From a virus, in IMG/VR virus record IMGVR_UViG_3300045988_107676, positions 1 to 39,990 of that record: DNA of 39,990 nucleotides. One strand, 5' to 3'. The notes beneath the pieces were generated by a model. That model was given only the letters and a program-made list of their open reading frames with translations, ran no database searches and had not been told where the DNA came from. The position numbers and the translations under genes are program-made. Positions within the stretch are counted from its first letter, which is position 1. Every line of letters starts with the position of its first letter. Below, in pieces: positions 3,796-25,734 of the stretch.

Positions 3796-4653
3796 TTACA
3801 TCATGTATACTGTCTCGATGGTCTGATGCTTCTCCACATCTTCATCGGTCATCGCTCCGACCAGCTCGGCAAATCTGCCTGTGAGGTACTGATTGAGGAG
3901 CAGCGTCTCGTCTATCCCGCTTGTGGCATCAATCGCCAGTCGCAGCGGAACCAAAGGCACTGCCTTCGGCTCTACTTCGATCTCCGCAGAGCCGGGTGCG
4001 CCGGAAAGGGTCGTGTGCCTGTGCTTGTACTGGATGTCAAACTGCCCACGATAGTGATAAGGGATGGCGATGTGGTATTCGTCCAGCCTCCGATAATCGG
4101 AGAAGTCACGGAAGGTCACGCCATCGCCGGAGAACAGGATCTTCACGAGGCCGTTCATCTGCTCCGGAAGCTCGTACCTGTCCCAAGGCGTGTGTTCGGG
4201 GATGTTTTTCGATGGGTAATCATAATACCCTGCATTCCGCACCCAGAAGGGGTACTCGGAGGTGATGCGGATACTGCCCTTGAACGATCCCGAAAACCGC
4301 TTGAAGGAGTCCTCATCGATGGCCTGTGCGACTCCATCAACAGACATCCTCGCATGGCCTGTAATTTCAAGCGAATATGCTTTTGCGTCCGCATTGGAGA
4401 AGGTATACTCCTCGCCTGGATAAAAGCTCTTGCAGGGGAAGAAGCTCCCCTCCATGCATTTGGGAGGCGACTGGACGATGCTCACGGATTTGATGATGGG
4501 GAATTGGGACTCCACCATCGCAACAGCACCGTCCAGCAGGTGTTCCATTCTGTCCTTGTAGTCGGCGATAAAGCCGTTGCTTGCCGCTGCGCCGTTTACG
4601 GTCGCTTCATCCAGCCACCGCAGCGCACCGTTGATGGCATCGTTCTTGTTCAT
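3796..4653 (-). CDS. Virion structural protein (putative head-tail adaptor); family not recognised
   Basis: 285-aa ORF tightly packed between the small post-capsid gene and the 634-aa protein. Assignment is by position only. Confidence 0.4.
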   Translation of the reverse strand: MNKNDAINGALRWLDEATVNGAAASNGFIADYKDRMEHLLDGAVAMVESQFPIIKSVSIVQSPPKCMEGSFFPCKSFYPGEEYTFSNADAKAYSLEITGHARMSVDGVAQAIDEDSFKRFSGSFKGSIRITSEYPFWVRNAGYYDYPSKNIPEHTPWDRYELPEQMNGLVKILFSGDGVTFRDFSDYRRLDEYHIAIPYHYRGQFDIQYKHRHTTLSGAPGSAEIEVEPKAVPLVPLRLAIDATSGIDETLLLNQYLTGRFAELVGAMTDEDVEKHQTIETVYMM

Positions 4654-4958: not shown

Positions 4959-5888
4959 TTAGGCAGAAGCCATGGACTGAATGCAGACCATCGCCAGCTC
5001 CTGCAGGCGAACGGAAACTGCCATTGCCTTCCAGCCGACAGAGGCACGCTGGTTAAGCGGGTCATCGGTGCCGGCAGAGCCGGTGGGCTTGATGATGATT
5101 TCGGGCTTGGAGGAGCCGTTGACATCCACCACGCCGTAAGCATCCTTGCCTACGATGAGGGTCTTGTGCAGAGTCCCAGCACTGGCGGTCTTGGTGTCGG
5201 TGGGGCACATGGTGGTCAGGATGAAACGGACGCCATGGATGCGGCCGATCTCGCCCTTCATGATGTTCTCGGCGCCGTTGTACTTGGAGATGTCCTGCCA
5301 CAGGGCATCGTTCTGCAGGTCGTAAGCGACATCAGGATCGCAGAAACCGATGTAATAACCGCCCTCTACAGGCTCGGCGTTGTTGTTCCGCAGGGTACGG
5401 ACGGCCTTCTTGATCTCCTCGCTGTTGACTACCTTTCCGGCAGCGATGGCAGAAGCGGAGGCAGCACCACCGGCGTACTGCTGGGAAGTGCCACTGAAGA
5501 TGACATCCGCACAGCGGGTCTCAAGGGTCTTGGCGGCATTTTCGCCCATCAGTGCAGCGGCCTCGGTCAGGACGGGGTCGATGCCGACCATACTGATCTT
5601 GTCGGACATACAAACCCAGTTGCCCTCCTGCTTCACGGTAGCGGTCACAGCGGTGATGGACAGGTTGTCGCCGTCAGGGGTCACGCCCTCGGTCAGGGAA
5701 TTCGCAGGGACATCAAGGGAGTTAAAGCGGCGGAAGTTGATGTTGTCGCCCTTGTTCTTCGGCATGGGGCGCTTCTGACCGTACTTCAGGAAGGTCAGGT
5801 TGGGCAGCAGCCGGGACAGCAGGGTGCGGTCGTAAAAGGTTCTCTGTTCAGCGGTAAGATTACCGTAAGTCTGGGTAGTAGTAGCCAT
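4959..5888 (-). CDS. Major capsid protein, N4-gp56-like (HK97-fold) family
   Basis: The sequence ...FYDRTLLSRLLPNLTFLKYGQKRPMPKNKGDNINFRRFNSLDVPANSLTEGVTPDG... matches my memory of the N4-gp56 capsid family pattern. It follows an acidic scaffold gene. I prefer the ATG at 5888 (MATTTQ...) because the GTG at 5900 overlaps the AAGGAG RBS. Confidence 0.85.
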   Translation of the reverse strand: MATTTQTYGNLTAEQRTFYDRTLLSRLLPNLTFLKYGQKRPMPKNKGDNINFRRFNSLDVPANSLTEGVTPDGDNLSITAVTATVKQEGNWVCMSDKISMVGIDPVLTEAAALMGENAAKTLETRCADVIFSGTSQQYAGGAASASAIAAGKVVNSEEIKKAVRTLRNNNAEPVEGGYYIGFCDPDVAYDLQNDALWQDISKYNGAENIMKGEIGRIHGVRFILTTMCPTDTKTASAGTLHKTLIVGKDAYGVVDVNGSSKPEIIIKPTGSAGTDDPLNQRASVGWKAMAVSVRLQELAMVCIQSMASA

Positions 5889-6840: not shown

Positions 6841-8524
6841 TGTTACCGCCTCCTTTGTACTTGTCTAACGGGGTTGGGGCTTTCGGGATATCGGGCAATG
6901 GCACGTCGCCTACTCCCGAAACGCTCTGCAGCCCCTCGATGTTTTCTTCGGGTACTCCGGGCATCCCCATCGGGGTCGGCTGCATCTCACGCATCCGTTT
7001 GAATTTTTCCTTAAACGGCGCAACGTTGGGGTCGGACAGCTCGATGTACTGGTCGATTGTGATATCTCCTCGGTCAAGCATCTTGTCCAGCGTTGCCTGT
7101 GCCAGCACCGCAGAATACTCGGACGAAGCGCCGACATCCACCTGCAGGTCAAAGTCGTACATGGCGTAGTCAGTACCCGTAAACGCTCTGCCTGATACCT
7201 CGTCCCCCATCTCAATGACGATTTCCCTCTTGTCGGAGCAGTATGTTTTGAAAAACTCCATCCAAATGCGGCCGATCTCCTTAACTGCGTGCCAGTATCT
7301 GCGCTGAATCTCGTTGACAGGGGTCTGCGCTTGGTTTTGCAAAGCAATGATTGCGGATGCTGCCATGTTTGCACCCAAGGACTCTCCGGTCGTTACCTCG
7401 GTCGTGCCTGTTACTACACGGGTCAGGTCGATCATGTCGTTGCTGACCTGCGTAGCAGCAGACGAAAACGCCGGAGGCTGCAGGTACGATATCCCGCCGT
7501 TGGAGTAGTCGGTGACGATTTCCCCCGGCTCGTTGGTTAGCGGCTGTCTGATAGCACCCGGCTTTGCCACGATTTTCGGGAAGCCCATCTGCTGGATGGC
7601 CAGCGCCTGCATCCCATACATAAAGTTGATGAGCTTTTGGTTGGGGATAAGCCCCTCGATTTCGCCGATGCCGTAAAAACAGGCTTTACGCAGTTTCCAG
7701 TTGAGCGCCGCCACAGGGTACAGCTTGATGCGGACGGGGCTGCCCTGCGGGGTAAGCGGTACTGCTTTGCATATCTCCACGCTGCGGGTCGCTTTATCAA
7801 ATACGACCTCACCGTTCTTGCGGTAATACTTGGTCAGCACCGTGGCCTTTTCGTTTTCCTTGCCGTCCAGCTCAATTCTCTCGGCCTGATAGGTGCTTGC
7901 ATCCTCAAATTCATCGGGGCAGATGTTTGCCGCCTTTTCTGCCGGCAATCCCCTGTCCTTGGCCATCTTGCGTACAGCGCCCAATTTGAGCCGCTGGGCG
8001 ATGATGAGATAGTCCTGCTTCTGCACATCCCGGAGCTGCGGGTTGGCTACAAAAAAATTGAGAGCATCCACGGTTTCCCCACGAAGCTCCCCCACATATT
8101 TGTCGCCCGTAACGCTGGTGTCCCAGTAAAAGTGCCAGATGCCTGTGCCGTTGGTCGCTGCATCGTCACACGCCTCGTTGCACAGTTTGTCCATGTCTGC
8201 CCTATCCCAGATCGTCCGCGCGTATTCGGTGCAGTTTTCTGCGGCGTCCTGGTGCATCTGGTCAAGGATCTCATCGCCCGTTGCGCTGCCCTGCCGGTAG
8301 ACGATGCTGACAGGCTGGTCAAGCACGCTGGAGCGCTTGCTGCGGACGATCATGTCCACGATGTTAAGGACGGGTCTCGGCAGGTTTTTGGTGCGCTCGG
8401 TCGCTTGCGGCCACTGGTCTCCCTCCTTAAATCGCACAAAGGTCGGGAATTTGGTGCTAAAGCCCATCTTGTTGTGGTACGCTACACCCTCTCGGTATAG
8501 TGTCCACAGGGTTACATCACTCAT
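6821..8524 (-). CDS. Portal protein
   Basis: 567-aa ORF just downstream of terL with a GGAGG RBS. Size and position are typical of a portal. No motif was verified by search. Confidence 0.75.
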   Translation of the reverse strand: MSDVTLWTLYREGVAYHNKMGFSTKFPTFVRFKEGDQWPQATERTKNLPRPVLNIVDMIVRSKRSSVLDQPVSIVYRQGSATGDEILDQMHQDAAENCTEYARTIWDRADMDKLCNEACDDAATNGTGIWHFYWDTSVTGDKYVGELRGETVDALNFFVANPQLRDVQKQDYLIIAQRLKLGAVRKMAKDRGLPAEKAANICPDEFEDASTYQAERIELDGKENEKATVLTKYYRKNGEVVFDKATRSVEICKAVPLTPQGSPVRIKLYPVAALNWKLRKACFYGIGEIEGLIPNQKLINFMYGMQALAIQQMGFPKIVAKPGAIRQPLTNEPGEIVTDYSNGGISYLQPPAFSSAATQVSNDMIDLTRVVTGTTEVTTGESLGANMAASAIIALQNQAQTPVNEIQRRYWHAVKEIGRIWMEFFKTYCSDKREIVIEMGDEVSGRAFTGTDYAMYDFDLQVDVGASSEYSAVLAQATLDKMLDRGDITIDQYIELSDPNVAPFKEKFKRMREMQPTPMGMPGVPEENIEGLQSVSGVGDVPLPDIPKAPTPLDKYKGGGNNAVPKL

Positions 8525-21601: not shown

Positions 21602-21811
21602 TTAACTTAACCATCTTGCGAGGCTTGCTGCCGAAATAAAGTAGTTGCCTCGTTTGCTTGTTCTCTTTAACGGGATGTCACTGCTCATCAGTTGTCGGTA
21701 GCCCATCCCTGTGTACTGCGAAACCTCTGTGAATGAGAGGATTTCCTTGCCGGGGAACCTGTCCATCAAGCGTTCGAGGTTGTCCCGGTAGCTCTCCTTT
21801 TCTCTCGGCAT
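21602..21811 (-). CDS. Excisionase-like / HTH_17-type DNA-binding protein
   Basis: LSFTEVSQYTGMGYRQLMSS...GNYFISAASLARWL fits the AlpA/Xis-type winged-HTH pattern. It is the second gene of the early operon. Confidence 0.45.
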   Translation of the reverse strand: MPREKESYRDNLERLMDRFPGKEILSFTEVSQYTGMGYRQLMSSDIPLKRTSKRGNYFISAASLARWLS

Positions 21812-22008
21812 TATCCTCCCTCCTTTTCCTTGATAAGCTCGTCCAGCGCAGCCATGAACCGCTGTTCTGCTCCCTTTGGGTTTCTGTGGCCGTTAAGGAC
21901 CATGCAGACATACGCTTTCGTCACGCCGATTTTCTCTGCGACCTGCGTCAAGGTTATCTTGTTGTTGTGCATCTTGCCGACCATGTCGCCAGTCCATTGT
22001 GCAGGCAT
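21811..22008 (-). CDS. Cro-like XRE-family HTH regulator
   Basis: HTH ITLTQVAEKIGVTKAYVCMVLNG. The ATG at 22008 has GGGAGG 9 nt upstream. It is divergent from the repressor gene. Confidence 0.7.
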   Translation of the reverse strand: MPAQWTGDMVGKMHNNKITLTQVAEKIGVTKAYVCMVLNGHRNPKGAEQRFMAALDELIKEKEGG

Positions 22009-22262
22009 CCAAACTATCCTCCCTTCTATAAGTTTTTGTTGCAAAAGTTTACACAAAGTGATATCATATTATTGCGAAGAACATGAATATTTGGCATCCG
22101 GGATGCCCGCTTTGTGTTGCACTTGTTGCCCCATAACCACATTGTACAGTAAACAAACGCAACAATCAATAGAAAAGTGTTGCCTTCGTTTACTTTCTCC
22201 GTTTTGCACAAAAAGGTGGTGTTGCTTTTGTTCTACATTAACTATGTTGCGTTGTGCAACAA
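22009..22262. promoter_or_regulatory. Divergent immunity (genetic switch) region with iterated operator-like motifs
   Basis: The hexamer TGTTGC occurs six times on the plus strand (22037, 22115, 22124, 22178, 22220, 22245). It occurs twice inverted as GCAACA (22159, 22256). There is also a 15-bp perfect palindrome GGCATCCgGGATGCC (22093..22107). Confidence 0.6.
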
Positions 22263-22545
22263 AATAGGCAAGTCCCCGTCTGCTGTTGCAGAAGAAATGG
22301 GGTTTATGCGTTCCGTTGTTACACGATGGAGCAAAGGTTCCGTACCAAGGCAAGCAACACTCCAAAAGGTCGCCGATTACTTCGGCATCACCGTTGACGA
22401 GCTTTTGGGTAAAGGAAAACAGCCCACCGAAGGTGAGCTGTCCGGGATCCGGAAAGACCTTATGGATTTCGCAGATACTTTGACAGATGAGAAAATTGAG
22501 AAATATCTTCGTCTAATGAAAACTTTAGAATCCGAAGATATTTAA
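22177..22545 (+). CDS. CI-like XRE-family repressor
   Basis: HTH INYVALCNKIGKSPSAVAEEMGFMRSVVTRWSKGSVPRQATLQKVADYFGITVDELLG. The true start is probably a GTG/TTG at 22216..22228, after AAAAAGG. Confidence 0.8.
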   Translation: MLPSFTFSVLHKKVVLLLFYINYVALCNKIGKSPSAVAEEMGFMRSVVTRWSKGSVPRQATLQKVADYFGITVDELLGKGKQPTEGELSGIRKDLMDFADTLTDEKIEKYLRLMKTLESEDI

Positions 22546-22668
22546 CAAGCTGCTCGTCAGACATCCGTTCCACCGCCTTTTTGAATTCCTCCTTTTTCTC
22601 CATTGGTGTTCCTCCTCTTTTGTCGATTATTGTCAAATAAAAATCCTTCCAAATTCAGCATGTATTTG

Positions 22669-22764
22669 GTACAATTCAATTGTAACAAATTGCATGACCA
22701 ATGTATACTGACAAATGTTGCGGTTTGGGCGTCAAATTTGTCATGTTTTCCTGACAAATGTGTC
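22669..22764. promoter_or_regulatory. Second regulatory region: promoter-like element plus TGACAAAT repeats
   Basis: A 15-bp perfect palindrome TACAATTcAATTGTA lies at 22669..22683. A promoter-like TTGTAA (22680)-18 nt-TATACT (22704) follows. CTGACAAATGT occurs at 22708 and 22751, with an inverted copy (ATGACAAATTTGAC) at 22731..22744. Confidence 0.45.
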
Positions 22765-22791
22765 TGGTTCCAAAAAACAGGAGATGAGTTT

Positions 22792-23202
22792 GTGAGTTTT
22801 GACGAAGATAAGAATTGGGAAAACTTTTTGCTGGAGGTGGCCGAAAAACGGCAGGAGCAGGGTATGACCCACAAGGACTTGGCCGACAATGCCGGGACGG
22901 TTGAGAGGACGATCTCACGGTTGCTTTCGGAGCCGACAAAAAATCCAAGCCTTTTTCTCGTTGCTTCCGTCTGCCAAGCGCTGCACATATCTCTCGACAA
23001 GCATTTCGTGAAGGAAGTCTATACCAAAACAGACAGCCAAAGCAGCGAAGAAATGATAGAGGTTCTGAAAGAGCAGGTGCGTCAGCGCAGGAAGCTATCC
23101 AAAACACTCTTTGCAGTTATTTTTGTCCTGCTGGCAATGATGATTTTATACCTCGTCCTAATCGATGCAAATAACCTTAACTACGGTTTAATTCGGGGTT
23201 AA
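22792..23202 (+). CDS. Membrane-anchored XRE-type HTH protein
   Basis: The GTG at 22792 has AGGAGA 8 nt upstream. HTH MTHKDLADNAGTVERTISRLLS. A C-terminal TM segment TLFAVIFVLLAMMILYLVLI is followed by a 12-aa tail. Confidence 0.65.
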   Translation: MSFDEDKNWENFLLEVAEKRQEQGMTHKDLADNAGTVERTISRLLSEPTKNPSLFLVASVCQALHISLDKHFVKEVYTKTDSQSSEEMIEVLKEQVRQRRKLSKTLFAVIFVLLAMMILYLVLIDANNLNYGLIRG

Positions 23203-23280
23203 GAACAGATGTTCGTTACGAATATAATCGTACACAGGCAGGTGTCCAATAAAAAGGGCTGACATAGGGGGCATGGGAAG

Positions 23281-23583
23281 ATGAAAAGATTATTTATTGC
23301 TTTAGCTGCGCTTCTATTGCTTGGCGGCTGTGGAAGCCAGCGGGCGAGTCACGGAGAGGACTTTTCACCATGCACAATCTGCGGAAGACTTACAGGAATA
23401 GATGAGCTTACGGATATTGGATATAATGATGAGTATCTATGCAAAGACTGTTTAGAAAATAGAACATTCCTGTGCGACTATTGCGGGAGGAGATATCCTT
23501 TTGAAGCGATGATGAGCGAAAACCCAACATATTGTGAGTTCTGCTTCAGCGGGTTTGTTGACTATGGGGCAGATAGCTTATAA
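23281..23583 (+). CDS. Lipoprotein with four CxxC pairs
   Basis: Signal peptide plus lipobox: MKRLFIALAALLLLGGC. The mature part carries CTIC, CKDC, CDYC and CEFC. Confidence 0.75.
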   Translation: MKRLFIALAALLLLGGCGSQRASHGEDFSPCTICGRLTGIDELTDIGYNDEYLCKDCLENRTFLCDYCGRRYPFEAMMSENPTYCEFCFSGFVDYGADSL

Positions 23584-23634
23584 GTAAAATACCGCCCCCG
23601 GCAACGAGGGCGGTTAATGATAGGAGGAGAGAAA

Positions 23635-24495
23635 ATGCAAAAAGATTTAGGGATGAAGTGGCTAAAGGTTTGCAAAATACTTTGGCTGATTGGGGCTGCT
23701 ATTAGTCTTTCTTCTATTTGGTTCACACTCATATGCTTCGCTACCGTGTTTAGTGCATTTCCTGCATATATTGTGATCTGCATAGCATTGTGCCTCGTCA
23801 ACTCATTTCTTACCGTTCTGGCGTACACTGCAGTCAGCAGTTTCTGTGCTTCTCGTTTCAAGTACATAATTGCGTTGTTTGCTATAGCGCCTATTTCGGC
23901 AGGGGTGAATGCCTATGGTGGTGTAATTATGGCGGACCTAGTCACAAAACTTGCGGTGTCTGGCGTCTATTTCTTGATTACCGCATTAGCATGGTCGTTG
24001 CCAAATATCATATACTTTATGCACAGAAAGCACCTATTTACAGGGGCGGATCCAGACAGCGATACAAAAGCCCCACTTACTCCTGACGCCAGAGAAGAAA
24101 GCAAGGTGGAGGAAGATGCGCCGAAGCATGTGGGGGAAGTTCAAAGGGTAAAAGTCACGCCAATAAGAGTTTCTCCGGGAAAGTCAACAGATAAGAAAAA
24201 CGCAACGGCAGAGAGCGCAAAGAATAAAAAGAATATTCTAACATATTCGCTTGCCGCTTTGTGCCTTGCCCTCGGCATTTTGTGCGTTTATCAGGGAATA
24301 CAGATAGCTGATCTCACGGGGAAGGCGCTCCCGTGGGAGACAAATAGAACTGTTCTCGTTACAGCGTATGGTTATGTGGACAGCAGGTATCATAACGGGA
24401 ATTGCGCCTTGAGCAAAAAGAATGTGATGAGAAAGATGTCGGAAAAGGAAGCCATATCGAGCGGGTATAAAAAGTGCCACGCTTGCTTTGGTTGA
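23635..24495 (+). CDS. Polytopic membrane protein with a C-terminal Cys-motif domain
   Basis: The ATG at 23635 follows AGGAGGAGAG. There are four N-terminal TM segments, a charged linker and a fifth TM. The C-terminus reads YVDSRYHNGNC...EAISSGYKKCHAC. Confidence 0.7.
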   Translation: MQKDLGMKWLKVCKILWLIGAAISLSSIWFTLICFATVFSAFPAYIVICIALCLVNSFLTVLAYTAVSSFCASRFKYIIALFAIAPISAGVNAYGGVIMADLVTKLAVSGVYFLITALAWSLPNIIYFMHRKHLFTGADPDSDTKAPLTPDAREESKVEEDAPKHVGEVQRVKVTPIRVSPGKSTDKKNATAESAKNKKNILTYSLAALCLALGILCVYQGIQIADLTGKALPWETNRTVLVTAYGYVDSRYHNGNCALSKKNVMRKMSEKEAISSGYKKCHACFG

Positions 24496-24510
24496 TGGAG
24501 GCATACGAGG

Positions 24511-25629
24511 ATGCTCTGTAAGAAGTGCAAAAAGGAATTACAGGATGATTGGCTCTACTGCCCTTGGTGCGGTTTGAACGCAAAAAAAGACTCACGCAGG
24601 GCGATATCGCAGCGAAAAGACGGGACATACCAAAAAGCAATCACAATTGATGGGAAGCGCAAGTATTTTTACGGGAGATCAGAAAAGGATGTCATAAAGA
24701 AGATTGCAGAATTCAGCAGGGAGGCGGAGGATAAGCGGTCTGCTGCATTTGCCGTATATGCCGAAGCGCTGGAGCAGTCTTGGGACAACCTCGCATACAA
24801 TTCCCTTCGAGGGTACAAGCCTGCGCTCGTGCGATGTGTCGCTACGTTCGGGAAAACGCCTGTCGCAGACATCACGCCGATGCAGGTGAAGGGTTTCCTC
24901 GATAAGGTTGGAAAGACATTCTCGCAAAAAACCGTGAACACGCAGAAGAACATAACGAGCCAAGTGTTCGACCTCGCCATCCTCGCCGGGGACATACAAG
25001 TGAACCCTGTTGCAAACATCAAAGCGACCGGGAAGAAAACAAGCGGGCGGGAAGAAGCATCGCAGGAGGATCGGGAAAAGATCGCAGCCCATTGGGACGA
25101 TTGCGCCGTATCACGACTTGGTTACTTCATTATGATGACCGGGCTTCGTGTTGGAGAAGCACTTGCTCTGCGATACGAGGATATCGACAGGGATAAAAAC
25201 CAAATCCATGTTACGAAAAGCGTATACTATGTCGGCACTACTCCGAACATAAAAAAGCCAAAGACGGACGCAGGGGTCAGGACGGTATTCCTCCTGCCGG
25301 ATGTCGCAGAACGATTCAATGGGAAGAATGGTTACATCTTCACGAATGAAAAGGGAGAAATCCTTCGAAGCAATGAATCGTCCCGCAATTGGAGAAAATG
25401 GTGTAAAAATTACGGAATATGCTGCACATTCCACCAGCTTCGGCATAGCTTCGCAACATCTTGCTGCGAGGCAGGGATTGACAAAGCCGTTGTCCAAGGG
25501 ATGATGGGGCATTCCTCCTACATCGTGACGGAAAAGTACACCCATCTGCGTGACAAAATGTTGGAGGATGCACAGGCCAAATTTACTACATCACTTTTAC
25601 ATCACACGGATGCAAATACAAAGCAATAA
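24511..25629 (+). CDS. int: Tyrosine recombinase (phage integrase) with an N-terminal zinc ribbon
   Basis: CKKC...CPWC at the N-terminus. Catalytic signature: LRVGEALAL(R), HQLRHSF (H-x-x-R), and GHSSYIVTEKYTH (H...Y). Confidence 0.92.
   Translation: MLCKKCKKELQDDWLYCPWCGLNAKKDSRRAISQRKDGTYQKAITIDGKRKYFYGRSEKDVIKKIAEFSREAEDKRSAAFAVYAEALEQSWDNLAYNSLRGYKPALVRCVATFGKTPVADITPMQVKGFLDKVGKTFSQKTVNTQKNITSQVFDLAILAGDIQVNPVANIKATGKKTSGREEASQEDREKIAAHWDDCAVSRLGYFIMMTGLRVGEALALRYEDIDRDKNQIHVTKSVYYVGTTPNIKKPKTDAGVRTVFLLPDVAERFNGKNGYIFTNEKGEILRSNESSRNWRKWCKNYGICCTFHQLRHSFATSCCEAGIDKAVVQGMMGHSSYIVTEKYTHLRDKMLEDAQAKFTTSLLHHTDANTKQ
25583..25601 (+). repeat. Direct repeat copy 1 (candidate integrase arm-type site)
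   Basis: ttactacatcacttttaca matches 25771..25789 (ttagtacatcacttttaca) at 18 of 19 positions. It lies inside the int 3-prime end. Confidence 0.6.
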
Positions 25630-25709: not shown

Positions 25710-25734
25710 TTGGCGGAGATGGAGAGATTCGAAC
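25710..25734 (-). other. attP core candidate: 25-nt 3-prime end of a tRNA gene (fragment, not a functional tRNA)
   Basis: The minus strand reads AGTTCGAATCTCTCCATCTCCGCCA. This parses as T-loop TTCGAAT, T-stem CTCTC, acceptor strand CATCTCC, discriminator G and CCA. The upstream sequence does not form the rest of a cloverleaf. Confidence 0.7.

Follow-up and report, generated by a model that had tools for sequence, protein, structure and literature searches.

Transcription regulators that join a DNA-binding domain and a transmembrane (TM) segment in one protein are known and widespread, the helix-turn-helix (HTH) is the commonest DNA-binding domain of this class, and BcrR of Enterococcus faecalis is listed among its members (PMC10269533). 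Prophage genes for exclusion or abortive-infection membrane proteins lie between repressor and integrase, with lactococcal Sie2009, S. thermophilus TP-J34 Ltp, P22 SieA, and S. aureus PdpSau as examples (PMC10127798). Here we analyzed the whole virus record IMGVR_UViG_3300045988_107676 (39,990 bp, called the window below), with a focus on three adjacent plus-strand genes between its repressor and integrase genes. We call these genes g1, g2, and g3; they encode an XRE-type HTH protein with a predicted membrane anchor, a CxxC-rich lipoprotein, and a polytopic membrane protein with a His-Cys tail.

BcrR has an XRE-type HTH and four TMs, ToxR and CadC have periplasmic domains, and g1 resembles all of them in carrying a predicted cytoplasmic N-terminal HTH and a TM in one polypeptide. 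Unlike BcrR, g1 has no four-TM sensor but one C-terminal TM followed by 12 residues predicted to be extracytoplasmic, so it would have no sensor domain, and unlike BcrR, ToxR, and CadC it is phage-encoded, within a lysogeny module and next to a lambda-like triple operator. No phage lysogeny regulator of the membrane-tethered HTH type was described in the literature searched. What g2 and g3 share with the exclusion genes is genome position, strand, small envelope-anchored products, and mosaic spread in related phages, g2 being a lipoprotein like Ltp and g3 a membrane protein like SieA or PdpSau, but no sequence similarity to Sie2009, Ltp, SieA, or PdpSau was found. The mature part of Ltp consists of tandem HTH-like repeats, whereas that of g2 has two predicted Cys4 sites and no HTH match in Pfam, which sets it apart from the Ltp type. 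The site that holds g2, called the slot here, is comparable to the morons of lambdoid phages, which are promoter-gene-terminator cargo units, as it is a fixed site with conserved borders and interchangeable, AT-richer cargo. It departs from morons in that its left border is a LexA-box-like palindrome within face-to-face promoter-like sites and the T-run of its right-border hairpin lies on the opposite strand only.

Our results favor, with a probability of about 0.6, a mosaic accessory region in which g1 would be an autoregulator and g2 and g3 independent envelope exclusion or anti-phage cargo. Uncultured gut Bacillota have many temperate phages, of which little is understood, and the locus provides an alignable map of their lysogeny-side accessory region, with an optional tethered regulator, a bordered slot, a shuffled membrane protein, and a swappable recombinase, which can be used to annotate related prophages and to collect candidate exclusion or defence genes.

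Distribution of g1, g2, and g3 and the cargo slot

The genes and slot borders are as follows.
22792-23202, plus strand: g1, between repressor and integrase
23199-23248: left border of the slot, with a Cheo/LexA-box-like palindrome (AGAACAGATGTTCG, 23202-23215) inside overlapping promoter-like sites
23281-23583, plus strand: g2, the cargo gene, encoding a lipoprotein of 100 amino acids (aa)
23591-23614: right border of the slot, GC-rich hairpin ACCGCCCCCGGCAACGAGGGCGGT with a T-run on the minus strand only
23635-24495, plus strand: g3, 286 aa, ending 15 nt before the integrase start

In the sequence-only reading, g1, g2, and g3 were proposed to form a single cassette for which the tethered HTH acts as regulator or transduces signals, and a lack of co-occurrence in related prophages was named as a result that would speak against this. 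We looked for co-occurrence in 29 related loci (viral contigs, metagenome scaffolds, two genomes, and the GenBank contig MT839912; tblastn presence table), which come to about 12 distinct arrangements, and the trio was found in none of them (0/29), so the single cassette with g1 as its transducer was not borne out. The number of relatives returned by homology searches was 73 for g3, 49 for g1, and just 2 for g2. Of the 28 loci plus MT839912, 17 have g1, 11 have a close g2 homologue, and 24 have g3; g1 occurred with g3 in 12 of the 28 relatives, and close g2 with g3 but without g1 in 11. Outside the window, g1 and close g2 were nowhere found together. g3 stood without g1 in 11-12 loci, and g1 without g3 in L026, L030, and MT839912. 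The locus L029 gave no g3 match by tblastn, and MT839912, the only DNA match among GenBank phages, is an unannotated faecal contig with g1 and without g2 or g3. As judged from these comparisons, g1, g2, and g3 are three independently swapped accessory modules and not one system.

The variable genes of the slot sit between two conserved borders. At the left border, a plus-strand promoter-like site (TTAAGA-18-TATAAT, 23199-23228) and a minus-strand site (TGGACA-16-TATATT, 23248-23221) face each other, and the consensus is [GA]AAC-N4-GTT[CT] followed by 7 nt and TATAAT (23223-23228 in the window). [GA]AAC-N4-GTT[CT] is the form of the Gram-positive LexA (Cheo) box. The palindrome at 23202-23215 is a GAAC-N4-GTTC box that overlaps a promoter-like site and is thus a predicted LexA site, and in two Bacillota genomes associated with the phage group lexA itself is preceded by comparable boxes. 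Every related locus that spans this region has the left border at the corresponding position, irrespective of repressor or g1 type, with the exception of L025, in which neither border element was found. Since phages with a different repressor and g1, or without them, keep the palindrome unaltered, a host factor is more likely than a phage regulator to act at it. The direction of the promoter is ambiguous, since sites were found on both strands in the window, whereas in g1-less relatives only the minus-strand site scores, facing a small minus-strand open reading frame (ORF). A second exact GAAC-N4-GTTC (GAACCGCTGTTC) lies at 21856-21867 inside the Cro-like gene and may be coincidence, as 0.57 are expected in the window.

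The right-border hairpin is conserved in related loci, with one loop-base variant, directly before the ribosome-binding site (RBS) of g3; where g3 is absent, as in L026 and L030, it directly precedes the integrase gene. Between identical borders we found at least seven alternative cargoes: 100-aa and 151-aa CxxC lipoproteins; a 183-aa lipoprotein; a 101-aa polytopic protein; a TM-anchored 116-aa protein with four CxxC pairs together with a 174-aa membrane protein; a 100-aa CxxC protein together with a His-rich YHYH protein; and an anchored 302-aa protein. The g1-bearing relatives carry cargoes other than g2, namely the 183-aa, 101-aa, 116-aa plus 174-aa, 100-aa plus YHYH, or 302-aa proteins. 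As g2 has its own promoter-like site (23199-23228) and the hairpin at 23591-23614 parts it from g3, a simple arrangement with all three genes under a single promoter does not apply. The promoter-like element and operator-like repeats upstream, noted in the sequence-only reading, hold for g1 but not as the sole promoter of all three genes. That reading's placing of the repressor-integrase interval as an accessory (moron) region of the lysogeny module was supported, as was its impression of AT-richness, with a GC content of 0.42-0.47 over 22200-24600 against 0.50-0.56 in the flanks.

Architecture of the three proteins

All that had been read from the sequence about the proteins themselves stood: for g1 an XRE HTH, a single C-terminal TM, and a 12-residue tail; for g2 the lipobox LLGGC and four CxxC pairs; and for g3 five TMs and an end in YH-x3-C...GY-x2-C-x2-C. 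Their description as envelope proteins of no named family was likewise supported. PADLOC and PHROGs returned no defence or superinfection exclusion (Sie) family for them, apart from a match of the g2 signal peptide to Cor.

The g1 protein has 136 aa, with a GTG start and GGAG 8 nt upstream. Residues 17-69 match HTH_3 (PF01381) with 32.2 bits, above the gathering cut-off of 23, and are followed by a juxtamembrane helix, one strongly hydrophobic segment at residues ~104-124, and the tail DANNLNYGLIRG. The TM call comes from Kyte-Doolittle hydropathy (19-residue maximum 3.19) and not from a dedicated topology predictor. The motif LYLxLIDAxNxxYGLIR was invariant in 10 g1 sequences, down to 48% identity, making TM and tail the best-conserved part of g1. 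A chromosomal homologue of only 28% identity keeps the same layout and an IDxxN...GWFRG tail, and on this conservation we regard the membrane anchor as functional, not incidental. By its layout, with DNA-binding domain and TM in one protein, g1 is a predicted transmembrane transcription regulator, and g1-like genes adjoining recombinases recur in many gut phages. It did not group with RodZ, as neither an HTH_25 match at E<=1 nor an extracytoplasmic C-terminal domain was found.

The signal sequence of g2 (MKR-LFIALAALLLL-GG-C17) has the basic n-region, hydrophobic core, and lipobox expected of a lipoprotein, and its relatives have LGSC or LCSC at the lipobox. The LGGC box fits the PROSITE PS51257 rule and is not the canonical L-[AS]-[GA]-C. 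There are exactly four CxxC pairs (C31/34, C54/57, C65/68, and C85/88), which are predicted to form two Cys4 zinc sites; such extracytoplasmic sites would be plausible in the reducing surroundings of a strict anaerobe. A homologue of 151 aa and 79% identity occupies the same slot in the g1-less relatives L002-L006, L009, L017, and L019-L022, and TM-anchored versions of 28-31% identity occur in L010 and L018, so that this CxxC domain recurs in three diverged forms, all membrane-anchored. DUF4428 matched the mature part weakly (E=2e-4, below the cut-off).

The g3 gene most likely starts at ATG 23635 and not at 23617, since all relatives begin at MQKDLG. Its product has four N-terminal hydrophobic helices, a 75-residue charged linker, TM5, and the tail ...RYHNGNC...GYKKCHACFG. 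Comparison of relatives revealed two N-modules, A (four TMs) and B (two TMs and a coiled coil), and two C-modules, X (the putative zinc tail) and Y (a coiled coil), which were found in all four combinations (A-X, A-Y, B-X, and B-Y) around a constant part made of TM5 and the linker, whose KVKVxPxR-type motif has an invariant K-V-x-P core. The g3 of the window is A-X, and X is the minority C-module, present in the window, L007, L023, and L025. No homologue was found among GenBank phages. We predict that the N-terminus and linker are cytoplasmic and the C-module lies outside the cell, because both N-modules have an even number of TMs after a basic N-terminus, the X domain stands elsewhere behind a signal anchor and an acidic/Pro-rich stalk (L025) or in lipoproteins (P0127, P0129, and P0130), and Y matches the TM plus coiled-coil Rz-like profile phrog_89 (E=1.7e-5).

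The X tail, with the ligand pattern H-x3-C-x23-C-x2-C, resembles the N-domain of E. coli Ada (PF02805; 1ADN/1EYF/1U8B), sharing the spacing X-x3-C-x23/26-C-x2-C and an '(E)A..GY/F.pC..C' helix-knuckle. A search of the 57-residue tail against 1.84 billion representative sequences returned 7 proteins, 4 of them secreted or lipoproteins with 2-10 tandem copies of vYv..g.YH...C...GY.pC..C; in a search of this size the multi-repeat matches had E values of 6e-5 to 7e-4. The proteins P0127-P0130 pass the PF02805 (Ada_Zn_binding) whole-protein cut-off, only through their summed repeats, and one tandem lipoprotein is fused to a CsgG/FlgO-like domain. On its own, the g3 tail had no match in a PDB sequence search, whereas a family profile of 20 units reached Ada N-domains only (1ADN, E=0.0026), with its His aligned to Cys38 and its three Cys to Cys42, Cys69, and Cys72. 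As the family profile reaches only Ada N-domains and the ligands align, the tail is best described as a distant Ada-N-type module with predicted zinc binding. It differs from Ada in having His in place of the methyl-acceptor Cys38, invariantly in the 20 family members, in its predicted extracytoplasmic location, in standing alone behind a TM, and in its frequent tandem arrangement in lipoproteins; since the acceptor is missing, no methyl transfer would be expected. By analogy with the chemistry of Ada, the tail may bind a phosphodiester polymer such as DNA or teichoic acid. An Ada-N-like His-Cys3 module predicted to lie outside the cell is an uncharacterized use of a domain usually regarded as an intracellular DNA-repair sensor.

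A further Ada-like domain was seen in the diverged phage L025, at 1384-1884, in a signal-anchored protein of 166 aa with an acidic/Pro-rich stalk and a YHxxGC...CxxC domain (PF02805, E=0.01) encoded between repressor and g1. As L025 also has a B-X g3, its lysogeny module holds two copies of the domain.

Operator array, orf47m, and rival explanations

Upstream of g1 lie the following elements, identified by repeat and promoter scans and by ORF inspection.
22669-22765, both strands: divergent promoter-like sites and three 14-bp operators of the TGACAAAT/TTGTCA type, spaced by 21-22 bp
22709-22722: operator O1
22730-22743: operator O2
22752-22765: operator O3
22460-22603, minus strand: orf47m, 47 aa from ATG 22603, GGAGG 7 nt upstream, divergent from g1

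The promoter-like sites between g1 and orf47m are TTGTAA-18-TATACT on the plus strand and TATACA-17-TACAAT on the minus strand, and O1-O3 overlap them. The window contains 7 copies of TGACAAAT, three of them within 22709-22759, where 1.55 would be expected in the window and 0 of 100 shuffles reached 7, and genome-wide the longer 13-mer form of the operator clusters at O1-O3 only, supporting the earlier claim that g1 has its own operator array. The same triple array lies upstream of the g1 homologues of L026 and L027 (57-65% identity), whereas in L025, where the HTH is 45% identical and the recognition helix differs, CCCC-N-GGGG palindromes replace it. As operator type co-varies with HTH type across these three loci, g1 would be expected to bind O1-O3. 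The phage-borne transmembrane XRE regulator with its lambda-like triple operator is itself an uncharacterized piece. We rejected g1 as the main prophage repressor, as g1-less relatives retain the rep/cro switch with a different operator motif (TGTTGC).

The 3' part of orf47m overlaps the 3' end of the repressor gene in antisense. Its protein is conserved: the ORF in the equivalent position of L030 is 39% identical over 46 aa (E=4e-9), and that of L026 is 39% identical over 23 aa. No Pfam, PHROG, or PADLOC family matches orf47m. A small minus-strand ORF with a strong RBS, convergent with and overlapping the repressor 3' end, was seen in every relative, at the following positions.
Window: 22460-22603
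L002: ~4180-4290
L026: ~5677-5810
L027: 1762-1905
L030: 4640-4795

These ORFs fall into two unrelated types (MEKKEEFKKAVERMSDEQ... and MKELTKEETRFIELMRQHPEN...), and the type tracks the C-tail type of the repressor, not the integrase type or the presence of g1. The small ORF is a candidate antirepressor. A role as excisionase was rejected, the ORF type being independent of integrase type, and SinI/SinR-like mimicry, in which the small ORFs would copy the C-terminal helix of the repressor, was likewise rejected for want of support, as BLASTP aligned neither of two pairs at E<=100. An inverted repeat (AAATATCTTCG...CGAAGATATTT, 22498-22545) at the end of the repressor gene encodes 'KYLR...EDI' on both strands, so the resemblance between repressor tail and orf47m in the window is an antisense artefact. 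Inside the repressor coding sequence, at 22419-22441, lies a minus-strand hairpin (ACAGCTCACC-TTC-GGTGGGCTGT, then TTTTCCTTT); the same element scored as terminator-like in L002 (4118-4092), and it probably ends the transcript of the small ORF. The repressor linker that it encodes, 'EKQPTxxGELS', is conserved among otherwise diverse repressors, which such a role of the DNA would explain.

In the reading we prefer, the interval would be the accessory side of the lysogeny module in a family of ~39-kb temperate gut phages, built of exchangeable parts. g1 would be tail-anchored, with its cytoplasmic HTH occupying the three operators, and would repress itself and orf47m from the membrane. g2 would be one of many small exported or membrane proteins in a fixed slot and would expose a two-zinc (4 x CxxC) domain on the external side of the membrane, while g3 would be produced together with the integrase and present its zinc module outside, where relatives present a coiled coil instead. 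Acting singly and not as a complex, each of the two would most likely block phages as they adsorb or as their DNA enters. Should this prove to be ordinary exclusion, the locus would be a useful and unsurprising catalogue entry.

Several results weigh against this reading. Many of the 29 loci are near-identical, so the counts overstate their independence. No known Sie or defence family was matched by g1, g2, or g3 in PADLOC, PHROGs, or GenBank phages, except that g2 matched Cor, a match limited to the signal peptide (residues 1-20, E=0.007), and g1 matched generic HTH models only. The LexA-like box at the slot promoter could mean that the cargo is SOS-induced, which is less fitting for exclusion. 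The g3 tail is net basic (10 K/R against 5 D/E), so that by the positive-inside rule alone it would be cytoplasmic; g3 itself gave no PF02805 match at E<=1 in the Pfam search. The AlphaFold2 models were of low confidence: for g2, the predicted local distance difference test score (pLDDT) was 64.5 and the fold-search matches were weak, all two-zinc fingers, with a best E of 0.074; for g3, the pLDDT was 53.6 and the search returned only noise (GPCR and SNARE helices, best E=0.36). Fold searches were not used as evidence of family membership.

Among the rivals, one envelope sensing or exclusion system formed by g1, g2, and g3, with the tethered HTH as regulator or transducer, agrees with their adjacency, shared strand, and envelope location, with the operator array upstream of g1, and with the 12 relatives that have both g1 and g3. 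We consider it highly improbable given the absence of the trio from all relatives, the restriction of close g2 to g1-less phages, the loci in which g1 or g3 occurs without the other, and the separate promoter-like site and conserved hairpin around g2. It is less far-fetched, but still unlikely, that g1 and orf47m form a second immunity or induction switch, in which a membrane repressor silences the antirepressor-like orf47m and an envelope signal is added to SOS control. In that case induction would follow once g1 is lost from the membrane, possibly by intramembrane proteolysis after envelope stress or phage attack, or once antisense transcription, driven by SOS from the LexA-box promoter, overrides it. 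The divergent pair is conserved in L030 (g1 45%, orf47m 39% identity), the three operators cover both promoter-like sites, and no part of g1 is better conserved than TM plus tail. The Pfam search gave no peptidase domain for the main repressor, and with 186 Tum and the Gifsy phages as precedent, such a repressor would need an antirepressor; in g1-less relatives the minus-strand site with the LexA-like box faces the small ORF, whose transcript would end at the hairpin in the repressor gene. These points stand against the lack of a family match for orf47m and of detectable similarity to the repressor tail, against an ORF type that follows the repressor C-tail and not g1 (L027 has g1 with the other ORF type), and against the many relatives that live without g1. 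The switch is compatible with the preferred reading of g1 and is silent on g2 and g3. We hold it distinctly doubtful that g1 is, further, the first phage membrane-tethered lysogeny regulator to couple prophage control to the envelope, its three-operator switch silencing orf47m until envelope damage or an incoming phage removes it. If true, removal of g1 at the envelope, for example by intramembrane proteolysis, would give SOS-independent or 'double-lock' (SOS-and-envelope) induction.

For g2 and g3, lysogenic conversion is a possible if rather unlikely alternative, with surface proteins that help the host through metal, extracellular DNA, or teichoic acid binding, adhesion, or competition. It would account for the YHYH His-rich protein and generic lipoproteins among the slot cargoes, for the tandem Ada-like domains in ordinary bacterial lipoproteins, one with the CsgG/FlgO-like fusion, and for the lack of a defence-family match, but rapid exchange of the exposed module, with the membrane base kept constant and the gene placed between repressor and integrase, is a pattern known from exclusion genes. 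We also find it quite improbable that g3, and perhaps the cargo, acts in lytic growth after SOS induction, where it could shut out or inactivate secondary infections or progeny as the cell dies or contribute to lysis timing, and not in the resting lysogen. The LexA-box-like palindrome is found at the slot promoter whatever the phage regulator type, with similar boxes at the lexA promoters of related hosts, g3 and the integrase, which induction requires, are translationally close, and the Y module resembles Rz-like TM plus coiled-coil proteins. However, the host is probably a monoderm, in which spanins have no role, the lysis genes at 35.0-36.8 kb are far from g1-g3, and the orientation of the LexA-controlled promoter is ambiguous. 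In addition, no convincing plus-strand terminator was found between repressor and integrase in a terminator scan, and read-through from the repressor promoter could express g2 and g3 in lysogens.

Genome setting of the lysogeny region

The record has direct terminal repeats, and the window comprises an entire temperate phage genome. It encodes a P22-type portal, terminase, Kelch-repeat fibres, an Amidase_3 endolysin, and a 3,054-aa polyvalent protein. Almost all genes are on the minus strand, and the plus-strand block at 22177-25629 is the lysogeny side, with the following features around g1-g3.
21811-22056: Cro-like gene, divergent from the repressor
22177-22545, plus strand: XRE repressor (rep), start of the plus-strand block
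24511-25629, plus strand: tyrosine integrase (Phage_integrase, 86 bits; phrog_1, E=1e-56)
25710-25734: attP core, identical to the 3' end of tRNA-Ser(GGA) in one Bacillota genome

The integration site is probably tRNA-Ser. Together with a g1 homologue of 45% identity found by genome contig search in an Absicoccus metagenome-assembled genome, the attP core suggests that the host is probably a monoderm member of the Bacillota. The contig L029 (NZ_JAHXLB010000019.1, 23.6 kb, labelled Helicobacter pylori) has a g1 of 93-94% identity and the same slot borders; most likely it is a contaminating gut-phage contig in an H. pylori assembly and not an H. pylori prophage.

A serine recombinase replaces the tyrosine integrase in L002-L006, L009, L020-L022, and L025. 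In the metagenome scaffolds L004-L006 this recombinase is 543 aa long, against 557 aa elsewhere, and ~0.5 kb later the contig stops (locus ends ~7673-8215), whereas L002 and L003 retain an intact phage junction to the giant gene. This suggests that the serine-recombinase variants have their attP inside the 3' end of that recombinase gene.

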